Positions 45,460-63,010 of a DNA stretch of 64,000 nucleotides are shown piece after piece; positions within the stretch are counted from its first letter, which is position 1; each line of letters begins with the position of its first letter. The notes beneath the pieces were generated by a model that saw only the letters and a program-made list of their open reading frames with translations, was not told the origin of the DNA and did no database searches. The DNA lies in the NCBI GenBank assembly GCA_963555995.3, contig OY821641.1:448001-512000 (forward strand), read 5' to 3'. The position numbers and the translations under genes were made by a program. The stretch is from Vicinamibacteria bacterium (lineage in GTDB: Bacteria; Acidobacteriota; Vicinamibacteria; Marinacidobacterales; Marinacidobacteraceae).

Positions 45460-46083
45460 TCAATTCCCTGGTGCGCCTGGGTCTGTCAGACGGTTCTGGC
45501 GCCGAAGCTCCATGGCGACGAAAGGGGATTCCCTCACCAGCACGTCGAAACAGATCCGCCCCGTCCAGAAGTCCGCAGCGTGGCTCTCCCGCGTGGTGCG
45601 AAACGCGTAGTCGTTGAGTTTCAATCGGCAGATCGTCGCCTCTACCTGGGCCCGAATCTCCGCCGACAACCGCCTGCCCGGACAAACCTGGAAACCGCTC
45701 AGCTCGATACGAAACCAGCCATCCTCAAGCTCGAAGGGATCGAGGACATCCAGCCAGTTGTTCTTCCGGGAGTTCATACGCGAGGAGGCGAGTCGGAAAT
45801 TGCTCCACTCGTAGATGAGATGCCACTCCCGCGACTTGGGGGCCATGTGATCCACGGAGGCGGCGCCGGTTACAGCATGGATGCGGAAACAGGAATACGC
45901 GCAGATCTCGTTGTATGCCTTCATGAGATCCGGTATGGCCTTTCTCCAAAGACTCGGCAAGCGGTCGACCAGTTCATCGGGAGGCGTCGCCTCGGCCTTC
46001 AACCGCTCGATGGCCCTTTTCCCCGGTTTGCGCACCTTCGTGTCGAAACCCGGAGGCTCGGGTGCCGGCGTAACGGGAATCAT
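45460..46083 (-). CDS. HNH-type nuclease (PtuB-like)
   Basis: 207 aa from MIPVTPAPEP; CAYSC...SVDHMAPKS...YEWSNFRLASSRMNSRKN; ATGA overlap with the ATPase stop. Confidence 0.8.
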   Translation of the reverse strand: MIPVTPAPEPPGFDTKVRKPGKRAIERLKAEATPPDELVDRLPSLWRKAIPDLMKAYNEICAYSCFRIHAVTGAASVDHMAPKSREWHLIYEWSNFRLASSRMNSRKNNWLDVLDPFELEDGWFRIELSGFQVCPGRRLSAEIRAQVEATICRLKLNDYAFRTTRESHAADFWTGRICFDVLVRESPFVAMELRRQNRLTDPGAPGN

Positions 46084-47327
46084 CGTCCCATCGAATGCCG
46101 ATACTGAGTCCAGCGGACCCAGAAGCGATCCACGTCGCTCAGGGCAGCCCGAAGTGCACCCTCCACCTGATCCAGTTCGTCGCCGGACGCTGTGCCGTCC
46201 CTGCGGAAGAGCGCCAAAGCATCGGTAATCGCGTTCTCCGCCTCGATAGAGCGCGGTTCCGTCAGATCGAACACGGAAGACGTGAGCCAAGCGTTGGCGT
46301 CGCCGTGTCGGCTCCAGGAATGTTCGAGAAGCGTGACGCTTCTTTCTTCGAGTTTCAGTTCCCACACGGCGTCGGAGTCTTTGTCGAACTGCGCTTCGAC
46401 GGACGCCAGAATCAGCGGTGAGTGCGTGGCCGCCACCAGTTGCACCGGAATCCCGGCTTCGCCCGTGAGTGCCTCCATCACGTCCAGCAAAGCCGGCACG
46501 ATCCGACGCTGCCACTCCGGGTGAAGGTGCGCTTCGATCTCGTCGATCAGGAAGATGATCTCACGGGCAGGCGCATCGCCGCGCAATTCTGCGGACGCCA
46601 CATGTTCCTGCCAAGTCCACACCAGCAAATAGGCTAGGGAGACGATGCGGCGAATTCCGGCCGAAGCGTGCACCAGCGGCACTTCCAGCCCGTACGGGGA
46701 CCTAATGGTGGGATGTTTCCGCGCGTCGCTGAGCGATAGCTTGATGAGTTCTCCCGGTTCCAGAGGTTCGGCTGGAGACGGCGAGAGCGCCACGAGGACG
46801 CTTTTTAGCTGCCGCATGGCGTCGCCGTCCTCGAGCTGCCAGTTCGCCCAATCCGCAATCAGCCCGTTGCAGTATTTGGTGGACCCTCCGAGGGGCAGGC
46901 CGTCCCAGACTTCCCGGCCCGAGAACAGGTACGCCGCCTGCCTTTCGCTGTCCTGCTCCTTCCAGTAGTTTCGGGCTGGGTCCCAGACCGAGAAGCCGCC
47001 GTCGACCTGGGCATAAAGCACGAGACCGGGAATCGGCGGGCGGCCCCGCCGCAGCTTCCACTGTTCTTCGCCACGGTCGAAGTTACTCTCGTACTCATGG
47101 GGTTTCGATTTGGCTCCGTAGCGGTAGAGAATTCTCGGAACGGCAGGGGGCCGATGCGGCACGAGCATCGTCCGCGCCCAGGTTCGAGTAAGAGCCCACC
47201 AAGCGGCTTCGAGAAGAAAGGATTTGCCGAGCCCGTTGTCGCCAGTCAGGAAGTTCATCCGACGTCGGAAATCGAGCGTCAAGCGCGGCGCCGGGCCGAC
47301 GCCCTCGAAGCTCAACCGTTCGATCAT
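46080..47327 (-). CDS. ABC-type AAA_21 ATPase (PtuA/AriA-like)
   Basis: GDNGLGKS Walker A, SAG signature, LIDEIEAHLHPEWQ Walker B/D-loop, ATHSP H-loop; no TM segments. Confidence 0.88.
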   Translation of the reverse strand: MIERLSFEGVGPAPRLTLDFRRRMNFLTGDNGLGKSFLLEAAWWALTRTWARTMLVPHRPPAVPRILYRYGAKSKPHEYESNFDRGEEQWKLRRGRPPIPGLVLYAQVDGGFSVWDPARNYWKEQDSERQAAYLFSGREVWDGLPLGGSTKYCNGLIADWANWQLEDGDAMRQLKSVLVALSPSPAEPLEPGELIKLSLSDARKHPTIRSPYGLEVPLVHASAGIRRIVSLAYLLVWTWQEHVASAELRGDAPAREIIFLIDEIEAHLHPEWQRRIVPALLDVMEALTGEAGIPVQLVAATHSPLILASVEAQFDKDSDAVWELKLEERSVTLLEHSWSRHGDANAWLTSSVFDLTEPRSIEAENAITDALALFRRDGTASGDELDQVEGALRAALSDVDRFWVRWTQYRHSMGR

Positions 47328-50191: not shown

Positions 50192-50256
50192 CCTGCCTGC
50201 CCCGGCGTTCGTGGCTTCCGTTTCGGGACCCGTCGCCGCTGGAATACACTGGGCTC

Positions 50257-51798
50257 ATGGGGTTCGGGAAAGTCTCTCGCAGCGTTCGGAACCTGCCTGT
50301 CCCGGTGGCATTGGCGCTGGGCTGCGGACTCGTGTCCGTCGCGGGCGGCGGGTGCGCGCTCAGGGCCGCATCCCCCGCCCGGGAGGCGGCTCCCGAGCTA
50401 CCCGCCGACTTCGTCGAGAGCCCGGCAGCTGGCGCCCCTGAGGCGCAGGAGTGGTGGCGGGCGTTCAACGACCCGGCGCTCGACCAGGTGGTCGCATCGG
50501 TACTGGACTCCAACTTCTCCGTGGCGGAAGCGGTCGCGCGCGTCGAGCAGGCCAGAACGCGGGCCCGGCTGGCCGACGCGGCGATCCTCCCCAGTGTCGG
50601 CGCGAGCCTCACCGCGGAAACCTTCGACCTGCCCACGAATGCCGCGATCGGCGCGCAGCTCGAGGACCTGGGCCTCGATTTCCCTCTGCCCGACCGGTTG
50701 GGCTTCCCGACCTATACCCTGGGCGCGGACTTCGCCTACGAAGCCGATTTCTGGGGCCGCGTCCGGCACACCGCCCTCGCGGCGGGATCCGAGCTGCTGG
50801 CCTCGGAGTTCGACCTGCGGGTCGCCCGCATCGGGATCCTCGCCGAGACGATTTCGGTCTACTTCGAGATCGGCCACCTGCGGCAGCAACGCGCCATCGC
50901 CGGGCGGCAGGTGGAACTGCTCGAGGAACGCGAGCGGTTCGTCGCGAGCCGCTACGAACGCGGGCTCACGGCTTCCCTCGAGCTGCACGGCGTCCGCGAG
51001 GCCCTCTCCAGCGCGCGGGCCGGCGTGCCGCAGGTCGAGAACCAGCTCGCCGAGACGGAGTCCCGGCTCGCCGTACTGCTGGGAGGCTACCGGGAGGACG
51101 TCGCGGCGATCCTTCCCGACTCCCGGTCGCCGGAAACCCCGGCCGAACCCGTGCCGGCCGGCATTCCGGCCGACCTCCTTTCGCAGCGGCCGGACGTGCA
51201 GGCCGCAGGTCACCGGCTGGAAGCCGCCGGACACACCGTCGAAGCGCGGCGCGCGGCCCTGATGCCCCAGCTCTCGCTCTCCGGATCCATTGGACTGCGG
51301 AGCACGGACGCCGGAGGCCTTTTCGACGTCAAGCAGTGGTTCACGAACCTTGCCGGCAACCTGCTCCGGCCGGTGTTCGACGGCGGCCGGCTGGCGAGCG
51401 GCGTGGAACTTGCCGAAGCGCGCTTCGATGAGCTGGCGGCAGCCTACGGCCGGACCATCGTTACCGCGGTCAACGAGGTGGAAGCGGCCCTGGCAACCCT
51501 GAGGAACGAAGGCCGCCGGCAGGAATCTCTTGCCGCCCGCCACGAAGAGGCCCGGACGTCCGTGGAAGTGCAGGCCAGACGTTACGAGTCGGGCATCAGC
51601 GGCTATGGCGATCTGCTCGACGCCACCGCCGGACTGCTGGACGCGGAATTGGCGCTTGCGGGTTCGGAGCGGAACCTGGCCCTCGCCCGGCTGGCCATCC
51701 ACCGGGCCCTGGGGGGCGCGTGGGCCGGCCCGGACGCGATGGCCGGCGCTCCGGCGGGCGCACCGGACACCCGTGCGAAAGGACCGGCGGACCGATGA
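50257..51798 (+). CDS. RND outer-membrane factor (NodT/TolC-like lipoprotein)
   Basis: GGC lipobox, WWRAFNDPAL, YEADFWGR, PADLLSQRPDV, HRALGGAW. Confidence 0.92.
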   Translation: MGFGKVSRSVRNLPVPVALALGCGLVSVAGGGCALRAASPAREAAPELPADFVESPAAGAPEAQEWWRAFNDPALDQVVASVLDSNFSVAEAVARVEQARTRARLADAAILPSVGASLTAETFDLPTNAAIGAQLEDLGLDFPLPDRLGFPTYTLGADFAYEADFWGRVRHTALAAGSELLASEFDLRVARIGILAETISVYFEIGHLRQQRAIAGRQVELLEERERFVASRYERGLTASLELHGVREALSSARAGVPQVENQLAETESRLAVLLGGYREDVAAILPDSRSPETPAEPVPAGIPADLLSQRPDVQAAGHRLEAAGHTVEARRAALMPQLSLSGSIGLRSTDAGGLFDVKQWFTNLAGNLLRPVFDGGRLASGVELAEARFDELAAAYGRTIVTAVNEVEAALATLRNEGRRQESLAARHEEARTSVEVQARRYESGISGYGDLLDATAGLLDAELALAGSERNLALARLAIHRALGGAWAGPDAMAGAPAGAPDTRAKGPADR

Positions 51799-53015
51799 AT
51801 CGAACCAGGGGGTACGTCCTGGCGGCGATCATCCTGCTCGGATCGTTCGGGATCGCCACCCTGCTGATCGCGCAGCGGCCCGAGCCCGAGCGGCGCGAGC
51901 CTCCCTCCCCGATTCCGTTCGTCGTCACCTCCCCGGCGGCGGCGGGTTCCGGGTCGATTCCGGTCCATGGCGCCGGCACGGTCCGGCCACGCGAGCAGGT
52001 GGACGTGGCCGCCGGGGTGAGCGGACGGGTCGTGTGGGTGGATCCGGCTTTCGAGAGCGGCGGGCGGGTCAGCGAGGGCCAGGTGCTTTTCCGCCTCGAC
52101 GACAGCGACTACCGCCACCGGACCGAGCAGGCGCGATCCGGCGTCGCCGGGCAGCAGTTGGAGTTGCTGCGGGTCGAGGAGGAGGCCCGGATCGCCCGCG
52201 AGCAGTACGAAGCGTTCCAGAGCCGCCGCGGCGCCGCCGCCGGAGGTGCGAACGCGAGTCCGCTCGCGCACTGGGAGCCGCAACTCGAGGCGGCGCGGGC
52301 CGGCGTGGAACGGGCCGACGCCCTCCTGGCGGAAGCCGAACTCCTGCTCGCGCGGACGGCGGTGCTGGCGCCCTTCGACGCGGTGGTGCGTTCCGAGACC
52401 GTCGGCGTGGGGCAATTCGTGACCGCCGGAGTGGGGGTGGCGCAGATCTACGCGTCCGATGCGGTCGAGATCGTCGTCCCGCTGTCGGACGCCGAAGCGG
52501 CGCTCGTCCCGGGCCTGTGGGACCTGAGGCCGGGAGTCGCGGACCGCCGGGCGGCGGCCCGGGTCACTGCGGAATACGGCGCCGGCGCCTACGCCTGGGA
52601 GGGATATGTGGACCGGGTCGAGGCCGCGCTGGACGAAACGACGCGGACCCTCGACGTGATCGTGCGGGTTCCGAACCCTTTCGAGGGCGGCTCCCGGGTG
52701 GAAACCGGCGAGGCGGACGCAGACCCCGGATCTTCCGCCGGGTCCCCGCCACCGCTCCTGATCGGCCAGTTCGCGAACGTCGAGATAGCGGGGATCGCGC
52801 CGCAGGAGTACTTCCGGATAAGGCGGCTGGGGCTCCGACCGGGAAACGAGGTCTGGGCGGTGGACGGCGAGGCGGTGACCATCGTTCCGGTGCGCGTGTT
52901 GCAGCGCTTCGACGACACCGTGTACGTCACGGGTGGGTTGCGGGAAGGCCAGGACGTGGTGCTGACCGGGATCCAGTTCGCGACCGAGGGAATGAGGGTG
53001 CGCACGGCGGAGTAG
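51795..53015 (+). CDS. RND periplasmic adaptor (membrane fusion protein)
   Basis: N-terminal TM, GTVRP...VSGRV, APFDAVV, LDETTRT, LLIGQF; ATGA overlap with the OMF stop. Confidence 0.92.
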   Translation: MNRTRGYVLAAIILLGSFGIATLLIAQRPEPERREPPSPIPFVVTSPAAAGSGSIPVHGAGTVRPREQVDVAAGVSGRVVWVDPAFESGGRVSEGQVLFRLDDSDYRHRTEQARSGVAGQQLELLRVEEEARIAREQYEAFQSRRGAAAGGANASPLAHWEPQLEAARAGVERADALLAEAELLLARTAVLAPFDAVVRSETVGVGQFVTAGVGVAQIYASDAVEIVVPLSDAEAALVPGLWDLRPGVADRRAAARVTAEYGAGAYAWEGYVDRVEAALDETTRTLDVIVRVPNPFEGGSRVETGEADADPGSSAGSPPPLLIGQFANVEIAGIAPQEYFRIRRLGLRPGNEVWAVDGEAVTIVPVRVLQRFDDTVYVTGGLREGQDVVLTGIQFATEGMRVRTAE

Positions 53016-53048
53016 CGCTCCGACGCCGTTCGATCGCCTGCAAGTTAA

Positions 53049-53227
53049 CAGCCCGTGGTGAAACCCACGCGAGCGCCGAGAGCGGTGAGGCGCCCGGCTG
53101 ACAAGGCGCGTGAGGGAGGAATACCGGGTGTATTCCGACCGAAACGCAACGATGAGCGCCTCGTAGAGGCGCGGTTCAGGCGGGATGCATCGCCGCTCGA
53201 ACGCCGCGTGGGTTTTGCCACAGGCTG
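53049..53227. mobile_element. MITE family B, 179 bp, full copy 2
   Basis: IRs CAGCCCGTGGTGAAACCCACGCG / CGCGTGGGTTTTGCCACAGGCTG; flanks TTAA and TTGA; internal GGAATAC..GTATTCC hairpin. Confidence 0.85.
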
Positions 53228-53291
53228 TTGAATCCGTCGGGGTGGGACGGGAGCATCCGCGAGCCTTCCGCGAGAATGCCGCTCGGTACGC

Positions 53292-54320
53292 ATGAGTGAA
53301 GGCGCGCTCCCCCCGTTCCCGGAGGGTTGGTATTTCGTCGCCACCCGAGCGTCCCTGGAGAAGGCGAAGCTCATCCAGAAGACGTGGATGGGACAGGACA
53401 TCGTTGCCTGGTGCGACGACGCCGGCAGGGTCTCCGTGGCCGAGTCGGTCTGTCCGCACCTCGGGTCCGAACTGGGACCCGTCGCCGGCGGCCGGGTGCG
53501 CGACGGCCGTCTCGTCTGTCCCTTCCACGGCTACGAGTTCGACGCCAGCGGCCAATGCGTCGCCACTCCCTTTGCCCCGCCGCCGAAGACCGCGAAGCTG
53601 AAGTCCTTCGAGACCCGGGAGGTTCTCGGCATCGTCTTCGCCTGGTGGGGCGCCGGTGGACGGCCCCCGCGGTGGCGCCTCCCGGAAGACCCGCCGGCCG
53701 GAGCCGACTGGTGCCGACCGGCGTTCCGGACTCTCCGGTTTCGGGGGCACCCTCAGGAAACGAGCGAGAACGCCGTGGACATGGCGCACCTGCGGTACGT
53801 GCACGGCTACGGCAACGTCGGCCGGGTCGGAAAGGTGACCGTGGACGGCGCGCAGCTCGTGAGTTCCTTTGACTTCAAGCGCACCCAGAGCGTCGTCGGG
53901 ATCGCGAATCTCACTTTCGACGTTTCCGCGACCGCCCACGTCGTCGGGCTCGGGTATTCCTTCGTGGAGTTCCGCGAACGCTCCATTGGCATGGACGGGC
54001 GTCTGTGGGTGCTTGCGACGCCCGTGGACGGCACCCTCATTGACCTGGTGCTGGTCAGCCAGTTTCGGCAACTGCGGAAGCCGAAACGGCCGATCGTCGG
54101 CTTGCGGTTCCTCCCGCTGACGCTTCGCACGCGGGTCATGAACGCGTTGATGCTGACTTTTCAGAAACACGACGTCCTGCAGGACGTGGAGATCTGGAGC
54201 CGGAAACGGTACCGGTCGCGGCCGAGCCTCTCCCGGTCCGACGGTGAGATCGGAATGTACCGGCGCTGGTGCAAGCAGTTCTACGCAGAACCGGGAACAC
54301 CCGAGCTCACGCCGTCCTGA
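53292..54320 (+). CDS. Rieske non-heme iron oxygenase, Neverland (cholesterol 7-desaturase)/KshA-like
   Basis: PPFPEGWY; CPHLG...CPFHG Rieske cluster; ENAVDMAHLRYVH Fe site; C-terminal QDVEIWSRKRY...DGEIGMYRRWCKQFY. Confidence 0.85.
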   Translation: MSEGALPPFPEGWYFVATRASLEKAKLIQKTWMGQDIVAWCDDAGRVSVAESVCPHLGSELGPVAGGRVRDGRLVCPFHGYEFDASGQCVATPFAPPPKTAKLKSFETREVLGIVFAWWGAGGRPPRWRLPEDPPAGADWCRPAFRTLRFRGHPQETSENAVDMAHLRYVHGYGNVGRVGKVTVDGAQLVSSFDFKRTQSVVGIANLTFDVSATAHVVGLGYSFVEFRERSIGMDGRLWVLATPVDGTLIDLVLVSQFRQLRKPKRPIVGLRFLPLTLRTRVMNALMLTFQKHDVLQDVEIWSRKRYRSRPSLSRSDGEIGMYRRWCKQFYAEPGTPELTPS

Positions 54321-55677
54321 AGCGCCAGCCGTACATCACCCGTCCGTAGAAGTTGAACCACTTCCTGGCCTCGGGGTCGTCGAACGGGTATTCCGCGCCG
54401 AGCTGCCTCGCCGTAACGAGGCCGGACACGAAACAGGTCTCCTGGCTGTTGATCAGGGTGTGCGCGCCGCAGTGCCAGGTCCGCCGCTTTCCCTGGACGA
54501 AGCGAAAGATCTGCGTCAGAAAGGCCACGTGACGCACGTCGTGGACGATGTGCTGAAACCACCACTTGCTGACGATCTTGTTGTCGGCGATCCGACTGAT
54601 CGGGTTGTAGGTCACGAGACACGGCTTGTCCGACTTCTTCGCCCACGGCTGCTGGTTGTGCATGATGTAGGTGATTTCGTAGTTGTCCGGCCGCGCGCCG
54701 TACTGCTGGATGTGGTTGCTCCGGGTGGCGAGGGGCCTGACTTCGCTGTCGGGGAGGACCGAGGCGTCCGAATGGACGACCGTGTGGTTGTGCAGTTCGC
54801 TCTCGTAGCGGACCTGTGAGAGGAGCCAACCCTCCAGCCGGGTCGGCCGGTCGAGGAGCATCAGCGTCTGGTTCGCGTTGCACGCGAAAACGACGTCATC
54901 GAACGTCTCCGCCGTTCCGTTCTCATCTTCCACGACGACGTCGTACCGGCGCCGGTGAACCTTTCGCACCGGCCGGTTCAGGTAGATCCTGTCGCGAAAC
55001 GACGCCGACAGCTCCCGATAGATCCGTCGGGTTCCCTGGTCCCACGTCTGCATCGGCGTCGCGGTCTCGATGTCGAAGAAGTCCAGGTAGCGGGAAAACA
55101 GCGACGCCGGCATGTCGAACACGTTCGTCGCCATCAGGAAGTTGACGAACATGGGTTTCAGGATCTTGTAGCGGAAGTCTCCCGAGTACCGGCCCAGGTT
55201 CAGCAGGGCGCCCATGCTGACGTAGTTGAACGGATTGAGGGCGCCGAGCAGTTTGGACCGGGACAGGTTGAGGCGGCCGAACCATTGAAGGCGCCGCAGC
55301 AGCCGCTGGAACCTCCGGATTTCCGGTTGCAACTGCCTCCGGATGTCGGAGTCGAAGTCGTGGGCATAGATTTCGCCCCGATACTTCACGCTGTAGTTGA
55401 ACCGGGTGGCGACCAGTTCGATCCCGTGCTGCTGCATGAACAGGACGAAGTGGTGGTATGCCGACGGAATGCACGCGGTCACTGAAATGTCGAACGGGAT
55501 CGCGCCGCCGCCGTCCTGGGGCATTTCGGCGGTGATCGCATTGCCGCCGAGCTGGGCCTGCGCTTCGAACAGTCGGAAATCGAAGCGGTCCGGATGCTGG
55601 TTGAGCGCCCACGCCACTCCGAGTCCCGAAACGCCCCCGCCGACGATGGCGATCCGCCGCGGCTTCGCTGCACCCAT
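54307..55677 (-). CDS. FAD-dependent oxidoreductase (COG2907/amine-oxidase-like, probably lipid-modifying)
   Basis: IAIVGGGVSGL dinucleotide motif, FEAQAQLGGNA, FDDVVFAC, VVHSD, LVTYNP, QGKRRTWHCGA...SQE...SG. Confidence 0.82.
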   Translation of the reverse strand: MGAAKPRRIAIVGGGVSGLGVAWALNQHPDRFDFRLFEAQAQLGGNAITAEMPQDGGGAIPFDISVTACIPSAYHHFVLFMQQHGIELVATRFNYSVKYRGEIYAHDFDSDIRRQLQPEIRRFQRLLRRLQWFGRLNLSRSKLLGALNPFNYVSMGALLNLGRYSGDFRYKILKPMFVNFLMATNVFDMPASLFSRYLDFFDIETATPMQTWDQGTRRIYRELSASFRDRIYLNRPVRKVHRRRYDVVVEDENGTAETFDDVVFACNANQTLMLLDRPTRLEGWLLSQVRYESELHNHTVVHSDASVLPDSEVRPLATRSNHIQQYGARPDNYEITYIMHNQQPWAKKSDKPCLVTYNPISRIADNKIVSKWWFQHIVHDVRHVAFLTQIFRFVQGKRRTWHCGAHTLINSQETCFVSGLVTARQLGAEYPFDDPEARKWFNFYGRVMYGWRFRTA

Positions 55678-55781
55678 GTTTTCTACTCTACCGTCGCGGG
55701 CGGCCGCCTCGTCCCCACCGGAAGAAGACCCCCATGATCGGGTCCTCCCGCACACCCCGCCGGTCATGAGAATTGCGGAAA

Positions 55782-55992
55782 CGGCTTGGAGCGCCGGCTT
55801 CAGCCGGCACCCGCTGCGCGGAGCGCAGCGGAACGGCGTACGGCTCCTGCCCGCATGGCGCGTGGGCAGGCGAGGCGGCTCCAAAGAACTGGTGGCCGGC
55901 GTTCCCGGCCTTTGCGCCATCCGGGCGGATGAGGTCCTTCCCGCCGCCCGCCTGCGGCGGGCTGTGCCGGCTGAAGCCGGCGTTCCCAGCCG
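55782..55992. repeat. REP/REPIN-like element, family A, copy 3 (inverted relative to copy 2)
   Basis: CGGCTTGGAGCGCCGGCTTCAGCCGGCAC ... GTGCCGGCTGAAGCCGGCGTTCCCAGCCG; whole interior matches the reverse complement of 42097-42308. Confidence 0.88.
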
Positions 55993-56223
55993 TTGGACCC
56001 TCACGGCTGTTGGCGGACCCGCACGGGACTGCATCTTCACAGCAACCGGGCCGGCGGCGCCATCACGGCTCCGAGGTGGACCCCCGAAGTAGCACTTTGG
56101 CGACGACTCGCCGCGCTCGGCGCTCGTGGAGGTTTCCCCGCCGGCTGGTAGAATTCCCGCCGGACAATCCGGAGGGGGCCGGTGGGCATGGCCTCAAGCC
56201 GCTCGATCCGGATGTCGAAGACC

Positions 56224-58245
56224 ATGAGCGAGGCCACCCGGTTCCCGATCCGAATCGCCGAGGAGTTGATCCTCCTCATGCTGGACGAGAAGAGCGGCTA
56301 CCTGGAGATGGTTCCGAACTGGGACTTTTCCTGTGTCATGGCCGGGGCCGTGCTCGCCGATCTGGCCCTGGAGCGTCGCATCGAGACCGACCTGGAGCGG
56401 TTGTACCTGGTCGATCCCACACCGACCGGAGACGAGTTGCTCGACCCGACGCTCAAGGACATCGCCGAATCCGATGAAAAATCGGACGCTCAGTTCTGGA
56501 TCGAACGGAACACCCGCCACGCCGACGAAATCGTCGCGACCGCCCTCGACCGCCTGGTGGAGCGGAACATCCTCACCCACGAGCACGGCGGATTCTGGGG
56601 GCTCTCGCGCTCCGTCGCCCGTTCGGGGACTTTCCCGACCCAGGCTGTCGAGACCCGCAGGGAATCCAAGGCGAGGATCCTGAGCGTCATCCTGCACGAC
56701 GAGATCCCGGACCCGCGGGACGCCATCCTGGTCGCCCTGATGCACACCTGCGGCGGCTTCAAGCTGCGGCTGGAGCAAGAAGACTACGAAGAGCGGCTCG
56801 CCCGGATCGAGCTCGTGGCCAGGCTGGACCTCATCGGACGGACGGTCGCGGCCGCCGTGCAGGACAGCACGGCGAAGCCCAAGACCCGTCGCGTGGTTCA
56901 GACCAAGCCCATTCCCAAGCTTGGGTATCTCAACGTACTGCTACAGCGTGATTTCCTCTCGGGCAACATCCCGAAGGCGATGTACGGCATTTACCGAAGA
57001 CACGGGCCGGTCGTCAGAATGCCCTTCAAGATCCGCGGCGCGCCCGTGGTTTCGGTGATGGGTCCCGATGTCAATCACTGGGTCAACCGGCACGGGCGGT
57101 TCTATCTCCGCTCGAAGGACTACATCGAAGGGCTGGAGCACGCGTTTGGCGCGTCCCGGAGCATGCCCGGCATGGATGGCGCGGAACACTATCGAATGCG
57201 CAAGGAACTCCAGTCTGCGTATTCCCGCGCCACGCTGGCGCAGCGGTTGCCGGAACTGATCCACGACTGCCGGAAATCACTGAGTCGTTGGAAGGAAGGA
57301 GATGTCTTCCGCGCCACCGAGAGCTTTCAGAACCACATCAGCAGTCAGATCTCGCATTTCGCGATGGGAGTGGATTGCAGCAGCTATGTGGACGAACTGT
57401 TGACTTTCGAACACCGGGCTCTGGTAACGCAGGTCCAGGGCGCATTGCCGGGTTTCATGCTGTCCACCCCAAGAATGAAACGGTACGGGAAGCGAGTCAG
57501 GGAACTCCAGGAGGCGATCACCGCGGCGCATACCACAGCGCAACGTAAGGGAAAGCCCAGGGATCTGGCCGACGCGATTCTCGATCTCCACAAGAGGGAT
57601 CCGCAGTTCCTTCCCGAAACGGACCTCACGTTTCCCTTCGTGGCGTCCATGGTCGCCAGCATCTATATGGGCAGTGCGTTGGCCTTCGCCATTTACAACA
57701 TGGTTCGAAACCCGGACGTGTACGCGAGGGTCCGGAGCGAAGCCGAGTCGCTCTTCGGCAACGGCCGTGGACTGGGAGGAGATGACTTCAATCACGAGAG
57801 CGTTGATGTCACGGTGCGTCTCTGCATGGAATCCTCGCGCATATACCCGGTGATTCCCTGGCAGTTGAGAACGGTCATGAACGAGTGCATCGTCAGTGGT
57901 TACGAGATACCGCCGAAGACGATGTTGCTGATCTGCCAGACGGCGCCGCACTATGCCGGGGACCTGTACCGGGATCCGTTGAAGTTCGATATAGACCGGT
58001 ACCTGCCGGACCGGGCCGAACATCTGCAACCGGGCGCCTACGCGCCCTACGGCCTCGGTACGCACATGTGCCTCGGCCACCGGTGGGTGGAACTTCAGAT
58101 GGCCGTCAACGTCCTGCTCATCGCGCGCCACCTGGAGCTCGAAGTGGTGCCCGGCAACTACCGGATGGGAATCAATCCGTTCCCGACCCTGGCCCCCAAC
58201 AGGAAACTGAAGTTCCGCGTCGCCCAGATCCCGAATCCCTTGTGA
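56224..58245 (+). CDS. GPP34 (GOLPH3/Vps74-like) - cytochrome P450 fusion protein
   Basis: N-terminal about 215 aa IAEELILLMLDEKSG...AGAVLADLALERRI...DPTPTGDELLD...DRLVERNIL (GPP34-like); C-terminal P450 with ESSR, FDIDRY and YGLGTHMCLG; single open frame; start could be 56182-56224. Confidence 0.82.
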   Translation: MSEATRFPIRIAEELILLMLDEKSGYLEMVPNWDFSCVMAGAVLADLALERRIETDLERLYLVDPTPTGDELLDPTLKDIAESDEKSDAQFWIERNTRHADEIVATALDRLVERNILTHEHGGFWGLSRSVARSGTFPTQAVETRRESKARILSVILHDEIPDPRDAILVALMHTCGGFKLRLEQEDYEERLARIELVARLDLIGRTVAAAVQDSTAKPKTRRVVQTKPIPKLGYLNVLLQRDFLSGNIPKAMYGIYRRHGPVVRMPFKIRGAPVVSVMGPDVNHWVNRHGRFYLRSKDYIEGLEHAFGASRSMPGMDGAEHYRMRKELQSAYSRATLAQRLPELIHDCRKSLSRWKEGDVFRATESFQNHISSQISHFAMGVDCSSYVDELLTFEHRALVTQVQGALPGFMLSTPRMKRYGKRVRELQEAITAAHTTAQRKGKPRDLADAILDLHKRDPQFLPETDLTFPFVASMVASIYMGSALAFAIYNMVRNPDVYARVRSEAESLFGNGRGLGGDDFNHESVDVTVRLCMESSRIYPVIPWQLRTVMNECIVSGYEIPPKTMLLICQTAPHYAGDLYRDPLKFDIDRYLPDRAEHLQPGAYAPYGLGTHMCLGHRWVELQMAVNVLLIARHLELEVVPGNYRMGINPFPTLAPNRKLKFRVAQIPNPL

Positions 58246-58312
58246 GCGCGGGAGCGTGTAGCGGCGCGGCCGACCCCGGGGTGCTTCTCAGGACTCGCTC
58301 CCACACGTACCG

Positions 58313-61300
58313 ATGAGTTCCGATCCAGGCAGCCACGCCGAGCCCGGCGGACCGATCGCCTACATGGCGAGTAACGGCGTCGCTTCCAATCTCCTGATGT
58401 TCAGCATCCTCGCGGTGGGCCTCGTGTCGCTGACCGGCCTCGAGCAGGAAGGGTGGCCCACGGTTCCCTTCAACCAGTTCGAGGTCTCGGTGCCGTTCCC
58501 CGGCGCCACGCCCGAGGAGGTCGAGGAGGCCATCGTCGTCAAGATCGAGGACGAGGTCAGGGGGCTGGCGGACGTGAAGACGGTCCGGTCCATAGCGGCC
58601 CCGGGGATGGCGTCCGTCAGGGTCGAAGTCAACTCGGGTACGGACATGGGCGCCAAGAAGGATGAAATCGAGGCGGCGGTCGGGCGGATCCAGACGTTCC
58701 CGGGCGGGGCCGAACGGCCCCAGATCCGGGAAATGACGAACGCGCAGAGCATGATGCGCCTCGTCCTCTACGGCGACGTTCCCGAGCGCTCGCTGAAGGA
58801 GCTCGCCTACCGGATCGAGGACGATCTCGCCGCGCTTCCGAACGTGTCCCAGGTCGAGATCAGCGGCGTGCGCAACTACGAGATCTCGATCGAAGTGCCG
58901 CTCGAGCGCCTGCGGGCCCTCGGGCTCACGTTGGCCGACATCGCCAACACGGTTCGCCGCGGTTCCCTGGACCTGTCCGCGGGCAGCATTGATACCGACC
59001 GGTCCCAGGTGCGGATTCGGACCCTGGGTCAGAGCCACGACCAGCAGGACTTCGAGGACATCATCATCCTCGGCCGCGCCGACGGCACGGCGGTCCGCCT
59101 GGGCGACATTGCCGAGGTGCGCGACGGCTTTCAGGACTCCGGTCTGATCGTCCGGCACGAGGGCCACCCCGCCGTGTTCGTCGAGGTCTCGCGCGCCGAT
59201 GGCGAGAGGGTGATGGATGTGGCGCGCGCTGTTCGCGACTACGTCACGAGCGAACTGGCCCCCTCGCTCCCGGACGGCGTGGGCATCAGCATCTGGAACG
59301 ACGACTCCTCGGCCTTTGTGGAGCGCGGCGTCCTTCTCCTCAAGAATGGAGCTCTGGGGTTGTTGCTGGTCCTGCTCGCGCTGGGTCTGTTTCTCCAGCT
59401 CCGGCTGGCGTTCTGGGTCGCCGTCGGTCTTGGCGTTTCCGGGATCGGCGCGCTCGCCGCCATGCTGGTGTTCGACATCCCGCTCCATGCGGTGTCGCTC
59501 TTCTCCTTCGTGCTCGCCATCGGCATCGTCGTGGACGATGCGATCGTGGTGTCCGAGCACATCCACCTGGAACGAAAGCGCGGCACGCCGGGGGTCGTTG
59601 CGGCGATCCGGGGGGCGCGGCGCATCAGGGTGCCGCTGATCTTCGCGGTGCTGACGACGATGGTGGCGTTCCTTCCACTGCTCTTCATACCTGCGGGGTT
59701 CGGCGAGGTCTGGAAGGCGCTGCCGATCATCGTCATCGCCATGCTGCTGATTTCGCTGGTCGAATCGCTGCTGGTGCTGCCGAACCATCTGTCCCATCAT
59801 CTGCATGGCCCGGACTGGGCGCCCCGGACGGGCGTGGAACGATTCGTCGCGCGGATCCAGAATCGTGTCGATTCCCTGTTGAACCGCTTCATCCAGGGAC
59901 CCCTGGACCGCGGGATCCAGTTCGCGGCGGACTGGCCCGGAGTGACGGTTTCGGGGGCCGTCGCGCTGCTTGTCCTGAGCATTTCCCTCCTGCCGGCCGG
60001 CATCGTCCCCGCCACCTTCGCCACGGAAGTCGAAGGTGACTTCGCCATCGCCACCCTCGAAATGCCGGACGGAACGACCGCGCCGCAGACGTACGCCGTG
60101 GCGGAGCAACTCGAAGCGGCCGGCCGCCGGGCGGTGGAGCGGCTTTCCGAGGAACGACCGGCCGATGCGCCTCCGCTACTTTCCGGGGTTACCGTCGTCA
60201 TCGGCCAGCGGTCGCGCGTCGAGACTGGGGGTCTCAACCCCTCGCCCACCCTGAACCCGGAGGCCAACGTCGCGACCATCGAGTTCAAGCTCCTGAGCGC
60301 GCAGCAGCGGCGCATCACTTCGGGAGAGGTCGTGCAGGCATGGCGCGAGGAGGCGGGCGAACTGCCTCAGGCGCGCGCGGTCACCTACATCAGCCAGATC
60401 TACACGCTGGGCAACCCGGTCGAGGCGGCGCTGTCCCACCCGGATCCGGAGCGCCTCAACGAGATCGCGAACTCCACCGTCGCCGGGCTCGGCGGAGTCG
60501 GGGGCGTCTTCGACATCCGCTCGGACCACACGCCCGGGGTGCCGGAAATCCAGGTGGGAATGCTCCCCGAAGCGCGCACGCTCGGTCTCACGCTGGACGA
60601 TCTGGCCCGGCAGACGCGAGCCGCCTTCTTCGGCGCCGAGGCCGTCCGGGTACAGCGAGGACGCGACGAGGTTCGGGTTTACGTGCGGCTACCCGAGGAG
60701 CAGCGCGACTCGATTACCGATATCGAGGGCTACCGGCTCTCGACGCCCGCCGGCGCCGACGTGCCGGTCAGCCGTGTGGCCGCGCTGCGTTCCGGCACCT
60801 CCCCACCGGCCATCCGGCGCCAGGACGGCCAGCGCGTCGTCACGGTGAGCGCCGATGTGGATCCCGGGGTGGTTTCCGCCGGGACCGCCAACGACATTCT
60901 GGAGAACACCATCCTGGCGGGACTCGTCGCCCAGAACCCGGAACTCACGTACACGTTCGGAGGGGAGCAGCAGCAGCAGCTCGACTCCCTGGGCGGTCTC
61001 TATCGCGGATTCGCGATCGCGCTGCTCCTGATCTTCGCGCTGCTGGCCATTCCCCTGCGCTCCTACACCAAGCCGTTCATCGTCATGGCCATCATCCCGT
61101 TCGGGTTTGTCGGCGTGATCCTGGGTCACTGGATGCTGGGGGTCGCCGTCAGCGCGGAGTCCTTCGTCGGGATCTTCGGGCTCGCCGGGGTGGTCGTCAA
61201 CGATTCCCTGGTGATGATTGATTTCACCGACCGGAAGCTCCGCGATGGAGTCCCCGTGCGAACGGCGATCATCGAGGGCGCGAAGGGACGCTTCCGTCCG

Positions 61301-61501
61301 ATCATGCTGACTTCCCTGACGACCTTCCTGGGCTTCACCCCCCTGATTCTCGAGGACGCGATTCAGGCGCAGTTCTTCGTTCCCTTCTCCGCCTCGATCG
61401 GCTGCGGCATCCTTTTCACCACGGCGCTCATCATGTTCCTGGTGCCCGCGCTCTCCTCGATCCACCTGCGGCTGACTTCGGCGCAGGGCCGCGCGGGTTA
61501 G
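58313..61501 (+). CDS. RND efflux permease (AcrB/AcrD/AcrF family)
   Basis: PGATPEEVEEAI, GIVVDDAIVVSE, GVVVNDSLV, RFRPIMLTSLTT; 1062 aa. Confidence 0.95.
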   Translation: MSSDPGSHAEPGGPIAYMASNGVASNLLMFSILAVGLVSLTGLEQEGWPTVPFNQFEVSVPFPGATPEEVEEAIVVKIEDEVRGLADVKTVRSIAAPGMASVRVEVNSGTDMGAKKDEIEAAVGRIQTFPGGAERPQIREMTNAQSMMRLVLYGDVPERSLKELAYRIEDDLAALPNVSQVEISGVRNYEISIEVPLERLRALGLTLADIANTVRRGSLDLSAGSIDTDRSQVRIRTLGQSHDQQDFEDIIILGRADGTAVRLGDIAEVRDGFQDSGLIVRHEGHPAVFVEVSRADGERVMDVARAVRDYVTSELAPSLPDGVGISIWNDDSSAFVERGVLLLKNGALGLLLVLLALGLFLQLRLAFWVAVGLGVSGIGALAAMLVFDIPLHAVSLFSFVLAIGIVVDDAIVVSEHIHLERKRGTPGVVAAIRGARRIRVPLIFAVLTTMVAFLPLLFIPAGFGEVWKALPIIVIAMLLISLVESLLVLPNHLSHHLHGPDWAPRTGVERFVARIQNRVDSLLNRFIQGPLDRGIQFAADWPGVTVSGAVALLVLSISLLPAGIVPATFATEVEGDFAIATLEMPDGTTAPQTYAVAEQLEAAGRRAVERLSEERPADAPPLLSGVTVVIGQRSRVETGGLNPSPTLNPEANVATIEFKLLSAQQRRITSGEVVQAWREEAGELPQARAVTYISQIYTLGNPVEAALSHPDPERLNEIANSTVAGLGGVGGVFDIRSDHTPGVPEIQVGMLPEARTLGLTLDDLARQTRAAFFGAEAVRVQRGRDEVRVYVRLPEEQRDSITDIEGYRLSTPAGADVPVSRVAALRSGTSPPAIRRQDGQRVVTVSADVDPGVVSAGTANDILENTILAGLVAQNPELTYTFGGEQQQQLDSLGGLYRGFAIALLLIFALLAIPLRSYTKPFIVMAIIPFGFVGVILGHWMLGVAVSAESFVGIFGLAGVVVNDSLVMIDFTDRKLRDGVPVRTAIIEGAKGRFRPIMLTSLTTFLGFTPLILEDAIQAQFFVPFSASIGCGILFTTALIMFLVPALSSIHLRLTSAQGRAG

Positions 61502-62556
61502 TCCTGATCGGCAGGCCGGCGCGCCACGAAACAGTAGAGCGGCGTGAAGATCCCCGTCCTGCCCCCCGCGACGTAGGCGTTCGCGGTCCGGTCCAGGAGC
61601 GCGACCACCTCCGCCGAACCCTTCGGGAACATGCCGAGGAACTCGGCGATCCGGATCCCCCACCGCAGCGCCTTGCGGCCCAGCGGAATCCGGCGGAAAG
61701 CGCTGCCGGGCAGCCCGCGCTGCGTTTCCATGGGCTGATACCACGGCGTCTCCGCACTGCCCTCGTGGACGGCGAGGTCCGTACCCTCCACGACTTCGAA
61801 TCCCGCGGTTTCGAGCGCCCGGTTCACCTCCCCGAACGTTGCGATGTCCTTGAGCGCGATGCCGTGCCTGAGCTCCCGTTCGATGGCGCGGTGCCGGCCG
61901 TTCCCGGGGTCGTACAGCTCCGTCATGCACATTTCCTGACCCCAGAGGAGGGCTCCGGGTTTCAGGACCCGGTAGATCTCGGCGAACGCGCCCGCCTTGT
62001 CGGCCGCGTGGCAGGTTGATTCGATCGCGTAGCCGCGGTCGAAGGTCCGGCCCGCGATCTCGCCCATGTCCATGAAGCTGCACCGGAGCAGATCGGTCCG
62101 GGCATCGAGCCCCGCGGCGGCGTTCAGCCGCCTGGCCTTGTTGCACTGGACCTCACTGGCGTTGATCCCGACAACCCGGACTCCGGCCTCCCGGGCGACG
62201 CGGCGCATCGGACCGCCGATCCCGCAGCCGACATCAACCACCGTCATCCCCGGCCGCAGTTCGAGCTTGGAGATCATGAGTCGCTGGTGCCGGATCTTGG
62301 AGTCCTCCAGACTCTCGCCGGGCGACAGCGGCGCGAAGTGCAGGGATTCTCCCCAACCCCAGACCATGAACGCGGTACAGAGGTCGTAGTACTCCTGGAC
62401 CGTCCGTGCGTGGTCGTACCCCTCGTCGGCGCCATCCTCCCGGGATGCCCTGCCGGTCCATCCTTCGAGGTCCCGTACCCGGCTCGGGACGTCCGATCCT
62501 GCGAACGCGGTCTTGAGCCCATCGGACAGTTCACGAATGTCCCGCGTGAGCTTCAT
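61498..62556 (-). CDS. Sterol C-24 methyltransferase-like (ERG6/SMT family) SAM-dependent methyltransferase
   Basis: YYDLCT.FMVWGWGESLHFAP (region I), VDVGCGIGGP (II), YAIESTCHA (III), EIYRVLKPG (IV), PWY, C-terminal GGRTGIFTPLYCFVARRP. Confidence 0.87.
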   Translation of the reverse strand: MKLTRDIRELSDGLKTAFAGSDVPSRVRDLEGWTGRASREDGADEGYDHARTVQEYYDLCTAFMVWGWGESLHFAPLSPGESLEDSKIRHQRLMISKLELRPGMTVVDVGCGIGGPMRRVAREAGVRVVGINASEVQCNKARRLNAAAGLDARTDLLRCSFMDMGEIAGRTFDRGYAIESTCHAADKAGAFAEIYRVLKPGALLWGQEMCMTELYDPGNGRHRAIERELRHGIALKDIATFGEVNRALETAGFEVVEGTDLAVHEGSAETPWYQPMETQRGLPGSAFRRIPLGRKALRWGIRIAEFLGMFPKGSAEVVALLDRTANAYVAGGRTGIFTPLYCFVARRPADQD

Positions 62557-63010
62557 GGCGAGTGCTGGCCCGCTTCCGGGTCTCGGCCAGCCGGACTTGC
62601 GAGACCGGCGGTTCGCGGCGGGGGCGGATGAAGACGGGGACCAGCGCGTCGCGTGTCCGTAGGCGGTCGCGGGAATGGAGGGCGCATAGCCACCACGTCA
62701 GCCGGAACCCGGATTTCCCATCCCCCCAAGGCAGTGGCTAGTGTACTGGAGGGATTGCGGTTCGCGCGCCGAAGGAGATGGACGGATGCCCAGGAAACGC
62801 CGGGTCTCGCCGTTTCCGGCAGTATCCGAGGTGCTCTCCGGAGGCCCGGATCACCGGCGTCAAGGAGCCGCCGCCGGCCGATGACGTCGGCGGCGCACCG
62901 GACGCGGAACGCGCCGCCGGGCGCCGACACCCGCGGCTGGAAGTACTGACAGGCGGTCGTACGCCGTCCGGGTTGAGAAGTGCGGCTCCCGAGAGAGTCG
63001 GATCAAAAGC

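Follow-up and report, generated by a model that had tools for sequence, protein, structure and literature searches.

In a 64,000-nucleotide stretch of a Vicinamibacteria bacterium genome (the window; contig OY821641.1, positions 448,001 to 512,000), we investigated an accessory island (window positions about 50193-62888, between a gamma-glutamyltransferase gene and a major facilitator superfamily (MFS) gene) in which a sterol methyltransferase (SMT)-like enzyme, a Rieske oxygenase, a flavoprotein and a GPP34-cytochrome P450 fusion accompany a tripartite resistance-nodulation-division (RND) pump. Sequence comparisons show a real, widespread and apparently undescribed form of bacterial sterol-modification cluster, in which the active sites of two enzymes point to non-standard chemistry. 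Judging by family membership and genomic company, we predict with moderate confidence that the module tailors sterols made elsewhere and exports the product. This reading has an observed base in the gene set itself, its spread across phyla, the exchange of its transporter with envelope type and its adjacency to sterol clusters in other genomes, as well as in altered active-site residues and the lack of a detectable cyclase in the source genome (G000; 3.80 Mb, two contigs, 92.95% complete).

All seven module genes are intact in G000. A NodT/OEP lipoprotein-type outer-membrane factor of a tripartite pump (OMF; 50257-51798, plus strand; PF02321, 2e-38; TIGR01845, 276.8 bits against a cut-off of 210) is coupled by an ATGA overlap to a membrane-fusion protein (MFP; 51795-53015, plus; TIGR01730, 148.5 bits, cut-off 94.9). 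Downstream lies a KshA/Neverland-type (steroid-ring) Rieske non-heme iron oxygenase (53292-54320, plus; PF00355 and PF19298 KshA_C, 1.4e-26), which meets tail-to-tail, with a 14-bp overlap, an FAD oxidoreductase of the LkcE/PF01593 group (the flavoprotein; 54307-55677, minus; PF01593, PF13450). The GPP34-P450 fusion, of the type named GPP34_L (56224-58245, plus), has an unbroken reading frame of 672 codons in which an N-terminal PF05719 domain (3e-33) is fused to PF00067 (3e-33). An AcrB/AcrD/AcrF-family RND permease (58313-61501, plus; PF00873, 9e-154), 5,297 bp from the MFP gene, completes the pump, and converges with a 4-bp overlap on the SMT-like gene (61498-62556, minus; PF08498, 8.7e-17). 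The first-pass annotation had described this arrangement correctly, from the ATGA coupling of OMF and MFP to the gap of about 5.3 kb holding the Rieske, FAD and GPP34-P450 genes and the 4-bp SMT overlap.

The grouping of these genes is not a chance one: the 3.8-Mb genome has a single copy each of the SMT and the GPP34 domain, the other module enzymes have only distant paralogs there (24-33% identity), dN/dS values of 0.13-0.32 against two relatives indicate purifying selection on all seven genes, and the same set recurs across phyla in shuffled orders. An SMT-seeded scan confirmed 377 stretches, and we counted gene content in the best 80 of these loci (by title, 19 Acidobacteriota, 47 Chloroflexota, 8 Gemmatimonadota, 3 Gammaproteobacteria, 2 Actinomycetota and 1 Rhodothermales; 16 truncated). 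Within 10 kb of the SMT, which belongs to a distinct clade described below (the clade SMT), GPP34-P450 was present at 68 loci (two fragmented), the Rieske gene at 59 and the flavoprotein at 37. An RND-superfamily transporter was found at 74 loci, comprising 30 same-clade AcrB-type permeases and 44 of the MMPL type, never both together. The AcrB type occurs only in diderm phyla and the MMPL type only in Chloroflexota and Actinomycetota, which are monoderms; the monoderm transporter (825 aa) carries MMPL, Sterol-sensing and Patched domains, and its closest solved relatives are Patched, MmpL4/5, HpnN and NPC1L1. A second set of 85 loci (78 new and 7 hand-picked, from deeper clade-SMT seeds, with at least five repeating genomes of the first sets) held GPP34-P450 at 65, the Rieske gene at 43, RND at 31, MMPL at 6 and the flavoprotein at 14. 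The search proposed in the first-pass annotation, for co-occurrence of SMT, Rieske, GPP34-P450 and RND, finds the set, with an RND-superfamily transporter of one type or the other, recurring across six phyla.

Because gene order is shuffled between loci, nesting inside the pump, which the first-pass annotation had noted, is not the conserved feature. It is true of this locus, and the nested order was seen at 11 of 19 GPP34-P450 loci (L001-L009, L011 and L012), all Acidobacteriota, the other eight being rearranged or incomplete; the arrangement is lineage-specific and incidental. Among the nested loci, L001 has a frameshifted flavoprotein and L011 an extra P450. Frameshifted flavoprotein, RND or P450 copies occur in L001, L014, L092 and L096, by decay or assembly error. 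At 15 Chloroflexota loci, an LppX/LprAFG-like lipoprotein and a DHA2 MFS transporter adjoin the module (for example L040:12260-14484 and L095:3811-6135), a pair that we take to resemble the mycobacterial LprG-Rv1410c lipid-transport pair.

The module appears to have spread by horizontal transfer, an interpretation well supported by the RND gene, which is far more conserved than RpoB, and whose tree nests a Rhodothermales copy among Acidobacteriota; the island is also patchily distributed. The module RND forms its own clade apart from the G000 paralogs and is 83-96% identical across phyla: 90% to the Rhodothermales copy and 83% to the Gemmatimonadota and Gammaproteobacteria copies (80-89% in DNA), in genomes whose RpoB is 44-46% identical over its main stretch, or 53% for the Chloroflexota genome. 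PF08498 turned up in 9 of 401 genomes of the source phylum, and 16 of 301 genomes from the phylum of G469 carried the clade SMT. Closer to the source, the clade SMT is carried by 10/15 same-genus genomes, 2/9 others in the family and 0/16 in two other families. Four genus members without it have the gamma-glutamyltransferase and MFS genes only 1.6-2.4 kb apart, compared with 12.7 kb where the island is present, and a fragment of the OMF or RND gene remains in two of the four (G404 and G408); the closed-up flanks and these remnants indicate that the island was lost in these lineages. A recent insertion in G000 was considered and rejected, since the G404 and G408 remnants point to loss from an older, genus-level island.

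We next turn to the methyltransferase, whose sequence scores over the cut-off for both SMT-family domains (methyltransferase PF08241 and Sterol_MT_C PF08498). It carries 24 of the 25 residues common to all functional SMTs (Brown and Welander, bioRxiv 10.64898/2025.12.19.695621; here and below, statements from cited papers refer to the accessible parts of those sources), the exception being F89, which is Leu; yeast numbers were assigned by motif spacing, without alignment to the yeast protein. H90, D125, G129, P133 and E195, essential in yeast (10.64898/2025.12.19.695621), are kept in the query and in 205/205 clade sequences. The clade nevertheless has a signature of its own, M81, L89, Q223-E-M225 and I249 in yeast numbering: among 205 redundant sequences, Met81 was found in 204, Leu89 in 205, Gln223 in 203, Met225 in 205 and Ile249 in 204 (two non-SMT open reading frames (ORFs) among 11 rows labelled 'other' were left out of the residue table). 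The second set agrees, with M81, L89, Q223 and M225 in 85/85 and H90 in 82/85. At the same columns, 94 full-length representative relatives have Tyr/Phe81 in 83, Phe89 in 83 and Trp225 in 80. The aromatic Region I of Erg6p, Y81-E-Y-G-W-G86 (PMC6997595), is likewise altered, with Met81 and Val82 in the query. In place of the Gly249 with Phe at 81 and/or 83 that marks propylating bacterial SMTs, the query has Ile249, Met81 and Trp83, and propylation is not predicted because position 249 is Ile.

Phylogenetically, the clade stands on a long branch with 100/100 support (IQ-TREE, 37 of 116 rows). A sister relationship to the SMT of a de novo sterol cluster, suggested by FastTree (82), was not upheld by IQ-TREE on the same 37 of 116 rows. 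Canonical-motif SMTs are retained beside the clade SMT in at least 10 loci (L052, L067, L089, L180, L184, L192, L199, L204, L208 and L271), implying that the clade SMT does a different job. The first-pass annotation had assigned it C-24 alkylation in the manner of ERG6, a claim that finds no support as worded, given Leu at position 89 and the invariant non-canonical pocket residues. C-24 methylation is doubtful for a distinct clade that has lost pocket aromatics and kept catalytic residues; the clade SMT is likely an active enzyme with a substrate or position other than the textbook C-24. In the nematode 4-SMT (PMC6997595), and likewise in the Botryococcus triterpene methyltransferases (PMC3533583), loss of the Region I aromatics accompanies altered chemistry.

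Three of the four module enzymes have steroid enzymes as their nearest families, namely PF08498 for the methyltransferase, KshA_C/KshA for the Rieske protein and, as best profile match, CYP51 for the P450. The Rieske protein has KshA as its best solved relatives (6.6e-27), contains the KshA_C domain, and belongs to a family in which the Rieske cluster ligands and mononuclear iron ligands are invariant in 65/65 homologs. Its Atlas neighbours are named cholesterol 7-desaturase, by automatic naming, and KshA was the one characterised steroid Rieske enzyme compared by sequence; the protein may be a Neverland-like desaturase or a KshA-like hydroxylase, and we make no choice between them.

The P450 keeps the heme-thiolate Cys, the ExxR motif and Tyr480 in 80/80 homologs. 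Where CYP51 has His-Thr, its I-helix acid (or His)-threonine pair is replaced, by Tyr in 80/80 and by Leu in 77/80, with Met in the query. Methylococcus CYP51 is the best PDB match by profile (1.6e-31; next family, 1.5e-26), and identity lies below the CYP51 family level of 40% or more, at 16-20% to solved CYP51s and 22% to the CYP51 of the G420 cluster described below. A structural model (pLDDT 82.3, with residues 607-614 at the heme loop of low confidence) was considered as a guide to substrate and set aside, as it folds like an ordinary P450 and gives no substrate indication. The GPP34 domain is weakly like GOLPH3, and the positions of GOLPH3 Trp81 and Arg90, residues that presumably have a role in phosphatidylinositol 4-phosphate (PI4P) binding, are not kept. 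The flavoprotein, whose best PDB match by profile is LkcE (1.3e-48; then 2b9w, 3.3e-13), is the least constant module member in both locus sets, and is 27% identical to a G000 paralog that lies beside a cyclopropane-fatty-acid synthase (CMAS).

If the module acts on sterols, G000 probably obtains them from outside. The whole genome (92.95% complete) gave neither a PF13243 or PF08491 match nor a tblastn match to the oxidosqualene cyclase (OSC) of G420, extending to the genome the first-pass observation that the window holds no oxidosqualene cyclase or squalene epoxidase (SQE); nor does G000 have a de novo sterol cluster, defined as OSC, CYP51 and ERG24 together. G420, from another genus of the same family, contains such a cluster in complete form (L124:5489-14796), with SdmB, SdmA, ERG24, CYP51, an epoxidase-like ORF, OSC and a canonical SMT. 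Among 50 module genomes from the set of 80 loci, for which reductase, cyclase and synthase counts were made genome-wide, cyclases classed by score alone were OSC-like in 4, squalene-hopene cyclase (SHC)-like in 23 (two have both), weak only in 3 and without a match in 22.

G000 does encode an orphan ERG4/ERG24-family sterol reductase (C1:2816410-2817468; L113:6411-7577), adjoining a eukaryotic-type carbonic anhydrase gene and about 70% identical to reductases that lie inside the module in four Chloroflexota loci. This family occurs in 41 of the 50 module genomes and in 0 of 14 controls; within the genus it is present in 10/10 module carriers, absent from three of the four island-less genomes and partial in the fourth. 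In the genus relative G414, a canonical-type SMT adjoins a second KshA_C Rieske gene, and another sterol reductase lies beside a sulfotransferase (L132:6452-8483; L133:6159-9708), extra genes that amount to a wider sterol toolkit.

At 7 of the 85 loci in the second set, homologs of OSC, CYP51, ERG24 or SdmAB lie within 10 kb of the clade SMT. L140 and L173 have an OSC-SQE-CYP51-ERG24-SdmA-SdmB run followed directly by the clade SMT and GPP34-P450, and L271 (Nitrospirales) has CYP51-ERG24-SdmA-SdmB and a canonical SMT, then the flavoprotein, Rieske, clade SMT and GPP34-P450 genes. The contig of L178 carries the whole module, with a clade SMT 57% identical to the query; this clade member seems to be one of the symbiont enzymes assayed by Brown et al. 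2023 (PMC10070321).

We propose the following course of events. A sterol would partition into the membrane, where the Rieske enzyme may desaturate its ring system (Neverland-like, at C-7) or hydroxylate it (KshA-like). The GPP34-P450, probably tethered to the membrane by GPP34, would then oxidise the sterol without the normal acid/threonine proton relay. The clade SMT would methylate a substrate that a canonical SMT or these oxidations had modified beforehand, most likely at an olefin further out on the side chain and not at the usual C-24, and the flavoprotein and the unlinked ERG4/ERG24 reductase may adjust double bonds. Finally, the OMF-MFP-RND pump, or the MMPL/sterol-sensing-domain (SSD) transporter in monoderms, would move the product out. 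The first-pass annotation had likewise envisaged tailoring and export; that outline is supported, as a conserved sterol-type set travels with a lipid exporter in mostly OSC-less genomes, but its C-24 element finds no support as worded and the nesting in the pump is incidental. It named scavenged, for example host-derived, sterols; the source could also be neighbouring sterol-making symbionts: sterol clusters were reported in 115 of 537 Ircinia metagenome-assembled genomes (MAGs), with ERG24, SMT and FDFT1 genes scattered (Kelly et al., PMC9531527).

Several observations weigh against this proposal. The P450 fold does not discriminate, VIA Z scores for CYP51 (34.9), CYP46A1 (34.5) and CYP184A1 (33.8) being tied within about 1, and Foldseek ranks fatty-acid hydroxylases first for the P450 model. 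A profile search of solved structures gave the flavoprotein no steroid relative. Neither a ferredoxin nor a reductase for the Rieske enzyme or the P450 was found inside the island; the P450 might conceivably run on peroxide supplied by the flavoprotein, but many loci do not have the flavoprotein gene. The sterol reductase is missing from two module carriers in other genera of the family (G416 and G418), and sterol-synthesis genes (OSC, CYP51 and SdmAB homologs) lie within 10 kb at 0 of the first 80 loci; we accordingly dropped an earlier statement that the module is "often" beside such genes. Squalene/phytoene synthase genes occur in 48 of the 50 module genomes and an SHC-like cyclase in 23. 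The co-occurrence counts are not independent, as the genomes are kin and share a habitat. Lastly, a switch to non-sterol substrates has precedent among SMT homologs whose sterol-binding domains are variant: the Botryococcus triterpene methyltransferases (TMTs) methylate squalene or botryococcene (PMC3533583).

A more specific version of the proposal gives the clade SMT the role of the missing sterol methyltransferase that extends side chains (C-26/27) or forms cyclopropane rings. The module would then enable dozens of lineages of symbionts to turn sterols of host or symbiont origin into 'sponge-specific' ones, such as the aplysterol-type 26-methyl compounds, and to export these to the host. 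We regard this as rather doubtful. Were it true, bacteria would be makers of the precursors of 26-methylstigmastane animal biomarkers, and the GPP34-P450 would be a sterol enzyme and not a phagosome effector.

Among competing explanations, detoxification fares best, though we judge it unlikely: the host's membrane-active defence compounds, steroids or terpenoids, would be oxidised, methylated and pumped out as waste. An AcrB-family pump would suit this purpose, the cross-phylum spread resembles that of a habitat-survival trait, and some genus members have lost the island. Attachment to de novo sterol clusters at 7/85 loci and replacement of the pump by an MMPL/SSD transporter in monoderms look biosynthetic, however, and detoxification would usually need fewer than four co-inherited enzymes.

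Distinctly unlikely, in our estimate, is an isoprenoid substrate of the bacterium's own making (squalene or a hopanoid), which would be methylated in the way of the Botryococcus enzymes, oxidised and exported. The TMT precedent (PMC3533583) and the SHC-like cyclases counted above speak for it, as do two tandem squalene-synthase (SQS)-like genes in G000 (C1:812903-815043; L114:6904-9044; about 56-60% identical to each other, in a genome with no cyclase) and the presence of this family in nearly all module genomes; SQS adjoins the module in 2/80 loci, with IspH in L036. SQS does not track the module, though, since 15/15 genus relatives have it, among them the four that lack the island; the sterol reductase, by contrast, largely follows the module. 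Moreover, KshA_C-type Rieske enzymes act on ring systems, and 22 of the 50 module genomes have no cyclase match. A sister RND pump in G401 (62% identical; L129:2-11896) has SQS, an MpaB/Lcp-type oxygenase, an HpnE-like flavoprotein and a P450 as neighbours, and in G000 an MpaB-type gene adjoins a paralogous pump (C1:2150903-2157976); this is possibly a second isoprenoid-tailoring module.

The strict earlier version, in which an ordinary C-24 sterol methyltransferase acts on desmosterol-type host sterols, we consider improbable. It draws on the 24 of 25 functional-SMT residues, and on symbiont SMTs proven to be C-24 enzymes (8 of 10 were active; Brown et al. 2023, PMC10070321). Set against these are the fixed Leu89 and Met81 of the clade at positions where relatives keep aromatics in 83/94 each, the long and fully supported branch, the canonical SMTs retained alongside, and Ile249, which predicts no propylation. 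Still less probable, to the point of being very improbable, is a module that modifies fatty-acyl chains by methylation, desaturation and oxygenation, following the UfaM/UfaD/UfaO logic of furan fatty acid synthesis. The flavoprotein paralog beside the cyclopropane-fatty-acid synthase and the fatty-acid hydroxylases among the top Foldseek matches fit such a role, but Sterol_MT_C, KshA_C, the sterol reductase and sterol-cluster adjacency all point elsewhere, and the flavoprotein varies most in its presence among the module members. The idea of an ordinary multidrug pump into which unrelated passengers were inserted is hardly credible and already largely refuted: G000 does encode several further RND pumps and gene order varies, but the enzymes stay together across phyla while the transporter swaps to another RND family, and the module RND forms its own clade.

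We also compared the proposed sterol-tailoring module with known systems. GPP34-P450 fusions and symbiont SMTs have each been published separately, and no description of the gene combination was found in the literature searched, which lacked most subscription journals. The sponge-symbiont C-24 SMTs and sterol clusters (PMC10070321; 10.64898/2025.12.19.695621; PMC9531527) resemble the present case in an SMT family with both Pfam domains, in horizontal spread and in sponge-symbiont hosts, and some module copies adjoin OSC-CYP51-ERG24-SdmAB clusters; they differ in that G000 has no cyclase and the pocket of the module SMT is rebuilt. In the accessible portions of these three papers, no mention was found of the GPP34-P450, KshA_C Rieske, flavoprotein or RND partners. 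The GPP34_L proteins of sponge symbionts share the same GPP34 and cytochrome P450 architecture, were described as restricted to sponge symbionts (656 of the 663 long forms) and were proposed to act in PI4P binding and phagosome evasion (Microbiome 2025, PMC11706023), in a paper whose main text nowhere uses the words sterol, RND, efflux or methyltransferase. Here, by contrast, the fusion sits among sterol-type enzymes and lacks the GOLPH3 Trp81 and Arg90.

Another close system, compared by description, is the nematode pair of the DAF-36 Rieske 7-desaturase and STRM-1/4-SMT (Zhou et al., PMC6997595). There, a sterol auxotroph modifies sterol taken from outside, using a Rieske enzyme together with an SMT homolog whose Region I aromatics are gone and whose reaction has changed. 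Identity of the bacterial SMT to canonical-motif SMTs is about 35-43%, compared with 21% between 4-SMT and Erg6p (PMC6997595), and no 3-oxo-forming enzyme is evident in the island. The Botryococcus enzymes TMT-1 to TMT-3 share the variant sterol-binding domains and new substrates of SMT homologs, and differ in being eukaryotic, acting on linear triterpenes and having no oxygenase/pump module (PMC3533583). KshAB of the 9,10-seco steroid catabolism of Actinobacteria shares Rieske and KshA_C domains with the module enzyme, and KshA is its closest solved structure; however, the island has no KshB, and its Rieske enzyme is paired with a methyltransferase and an exporter. No match over the cut-off was obtained to NF005882, the one KstD-type model tried, which we take to be a KstD model.

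If the proposal is correct, two separate signatures of sponge symbiosis, the GPP34-P450 fusions and the bacterial SMTs, would be joined in one mobile pathway, and sterol chemistry would offer an explanation of GPP34-P450 in place of phagosome evasion. For the makers of unusual sponge-sterol side chains, including the C-26 methylation that serves as fossil evidence for early animals, the module offers four named candidates. The findings also carry a caution for gene counts, since a large number of symbiont genes tallied as 'sterol 24-C-methyltransferase' fall in a different clade. Many related records carry isolate-name prefixes that presumably denote sponge or coral MAG sets. The source bacterium is itself likely sponge-dwelling, because GPP34-P450 is reported only from sponge symbionts and the one RNA run with a small share of matches is labelled sponge metagenome. 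In that metatranscriptome (X1, share 0.06), contigs about 90% alike span all 30 bins of the locus, flanks included; no conclusion on expression is drawn, because contigs give no level, strand or co-transcription and DNA may be present.

With respect to transcription, the whole locus is not one operon. OMF-MFP-Rieske and P450-RND are probably separate units because the flavoprotein gene lies on the minus strand, and the strands suggest that there are probably at least three units: OMF-MFP-Rieske, the divergent flavoprotein/P450-RND pair, and the SMT. The intergenic region between the divergent genes (55678-56223) is predicted from their strands to be a bidirectional promoter; a promoter scan of the locus found no sigma-70 consensus site, and terminators were fewer than in shuffled sequences. 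The region holds an inverted-repeat element (55780-55994) with 31-nt arms, from a repeat family with many copies in G000 (295 blastn matches for this spacer).

Another repeat occupies the MFP-Rieske spacer, a 183-bp element (53047-53229) with 25-nt terminal inverted repeats, resembling a miniature inverted-repeat transposable element (MITE). It is an insertion and not part of the module: it is missing from 3/3 aligned relatives, and has 120 blastn matches in G000 and dozens in each of five relatives. In G404 and G408, a copy also marks the left boundary of the deleted island.

Upstream of the island, the window contains an AAA_21 ATPase gene followed by a small putative HNH-type ORF (45460-47327, minus strand, lower GC), a pair with the look of a defence system and absent from the matching region of the relatives searched. 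Elsewhere in G000, an unrelated biosynthetic cluster (C1:3547161-3552696; L116:1162-6697) encodes a P450, a radical SAM protein, a halogenase-like flavoprotein and an AMP-binding enzyme.

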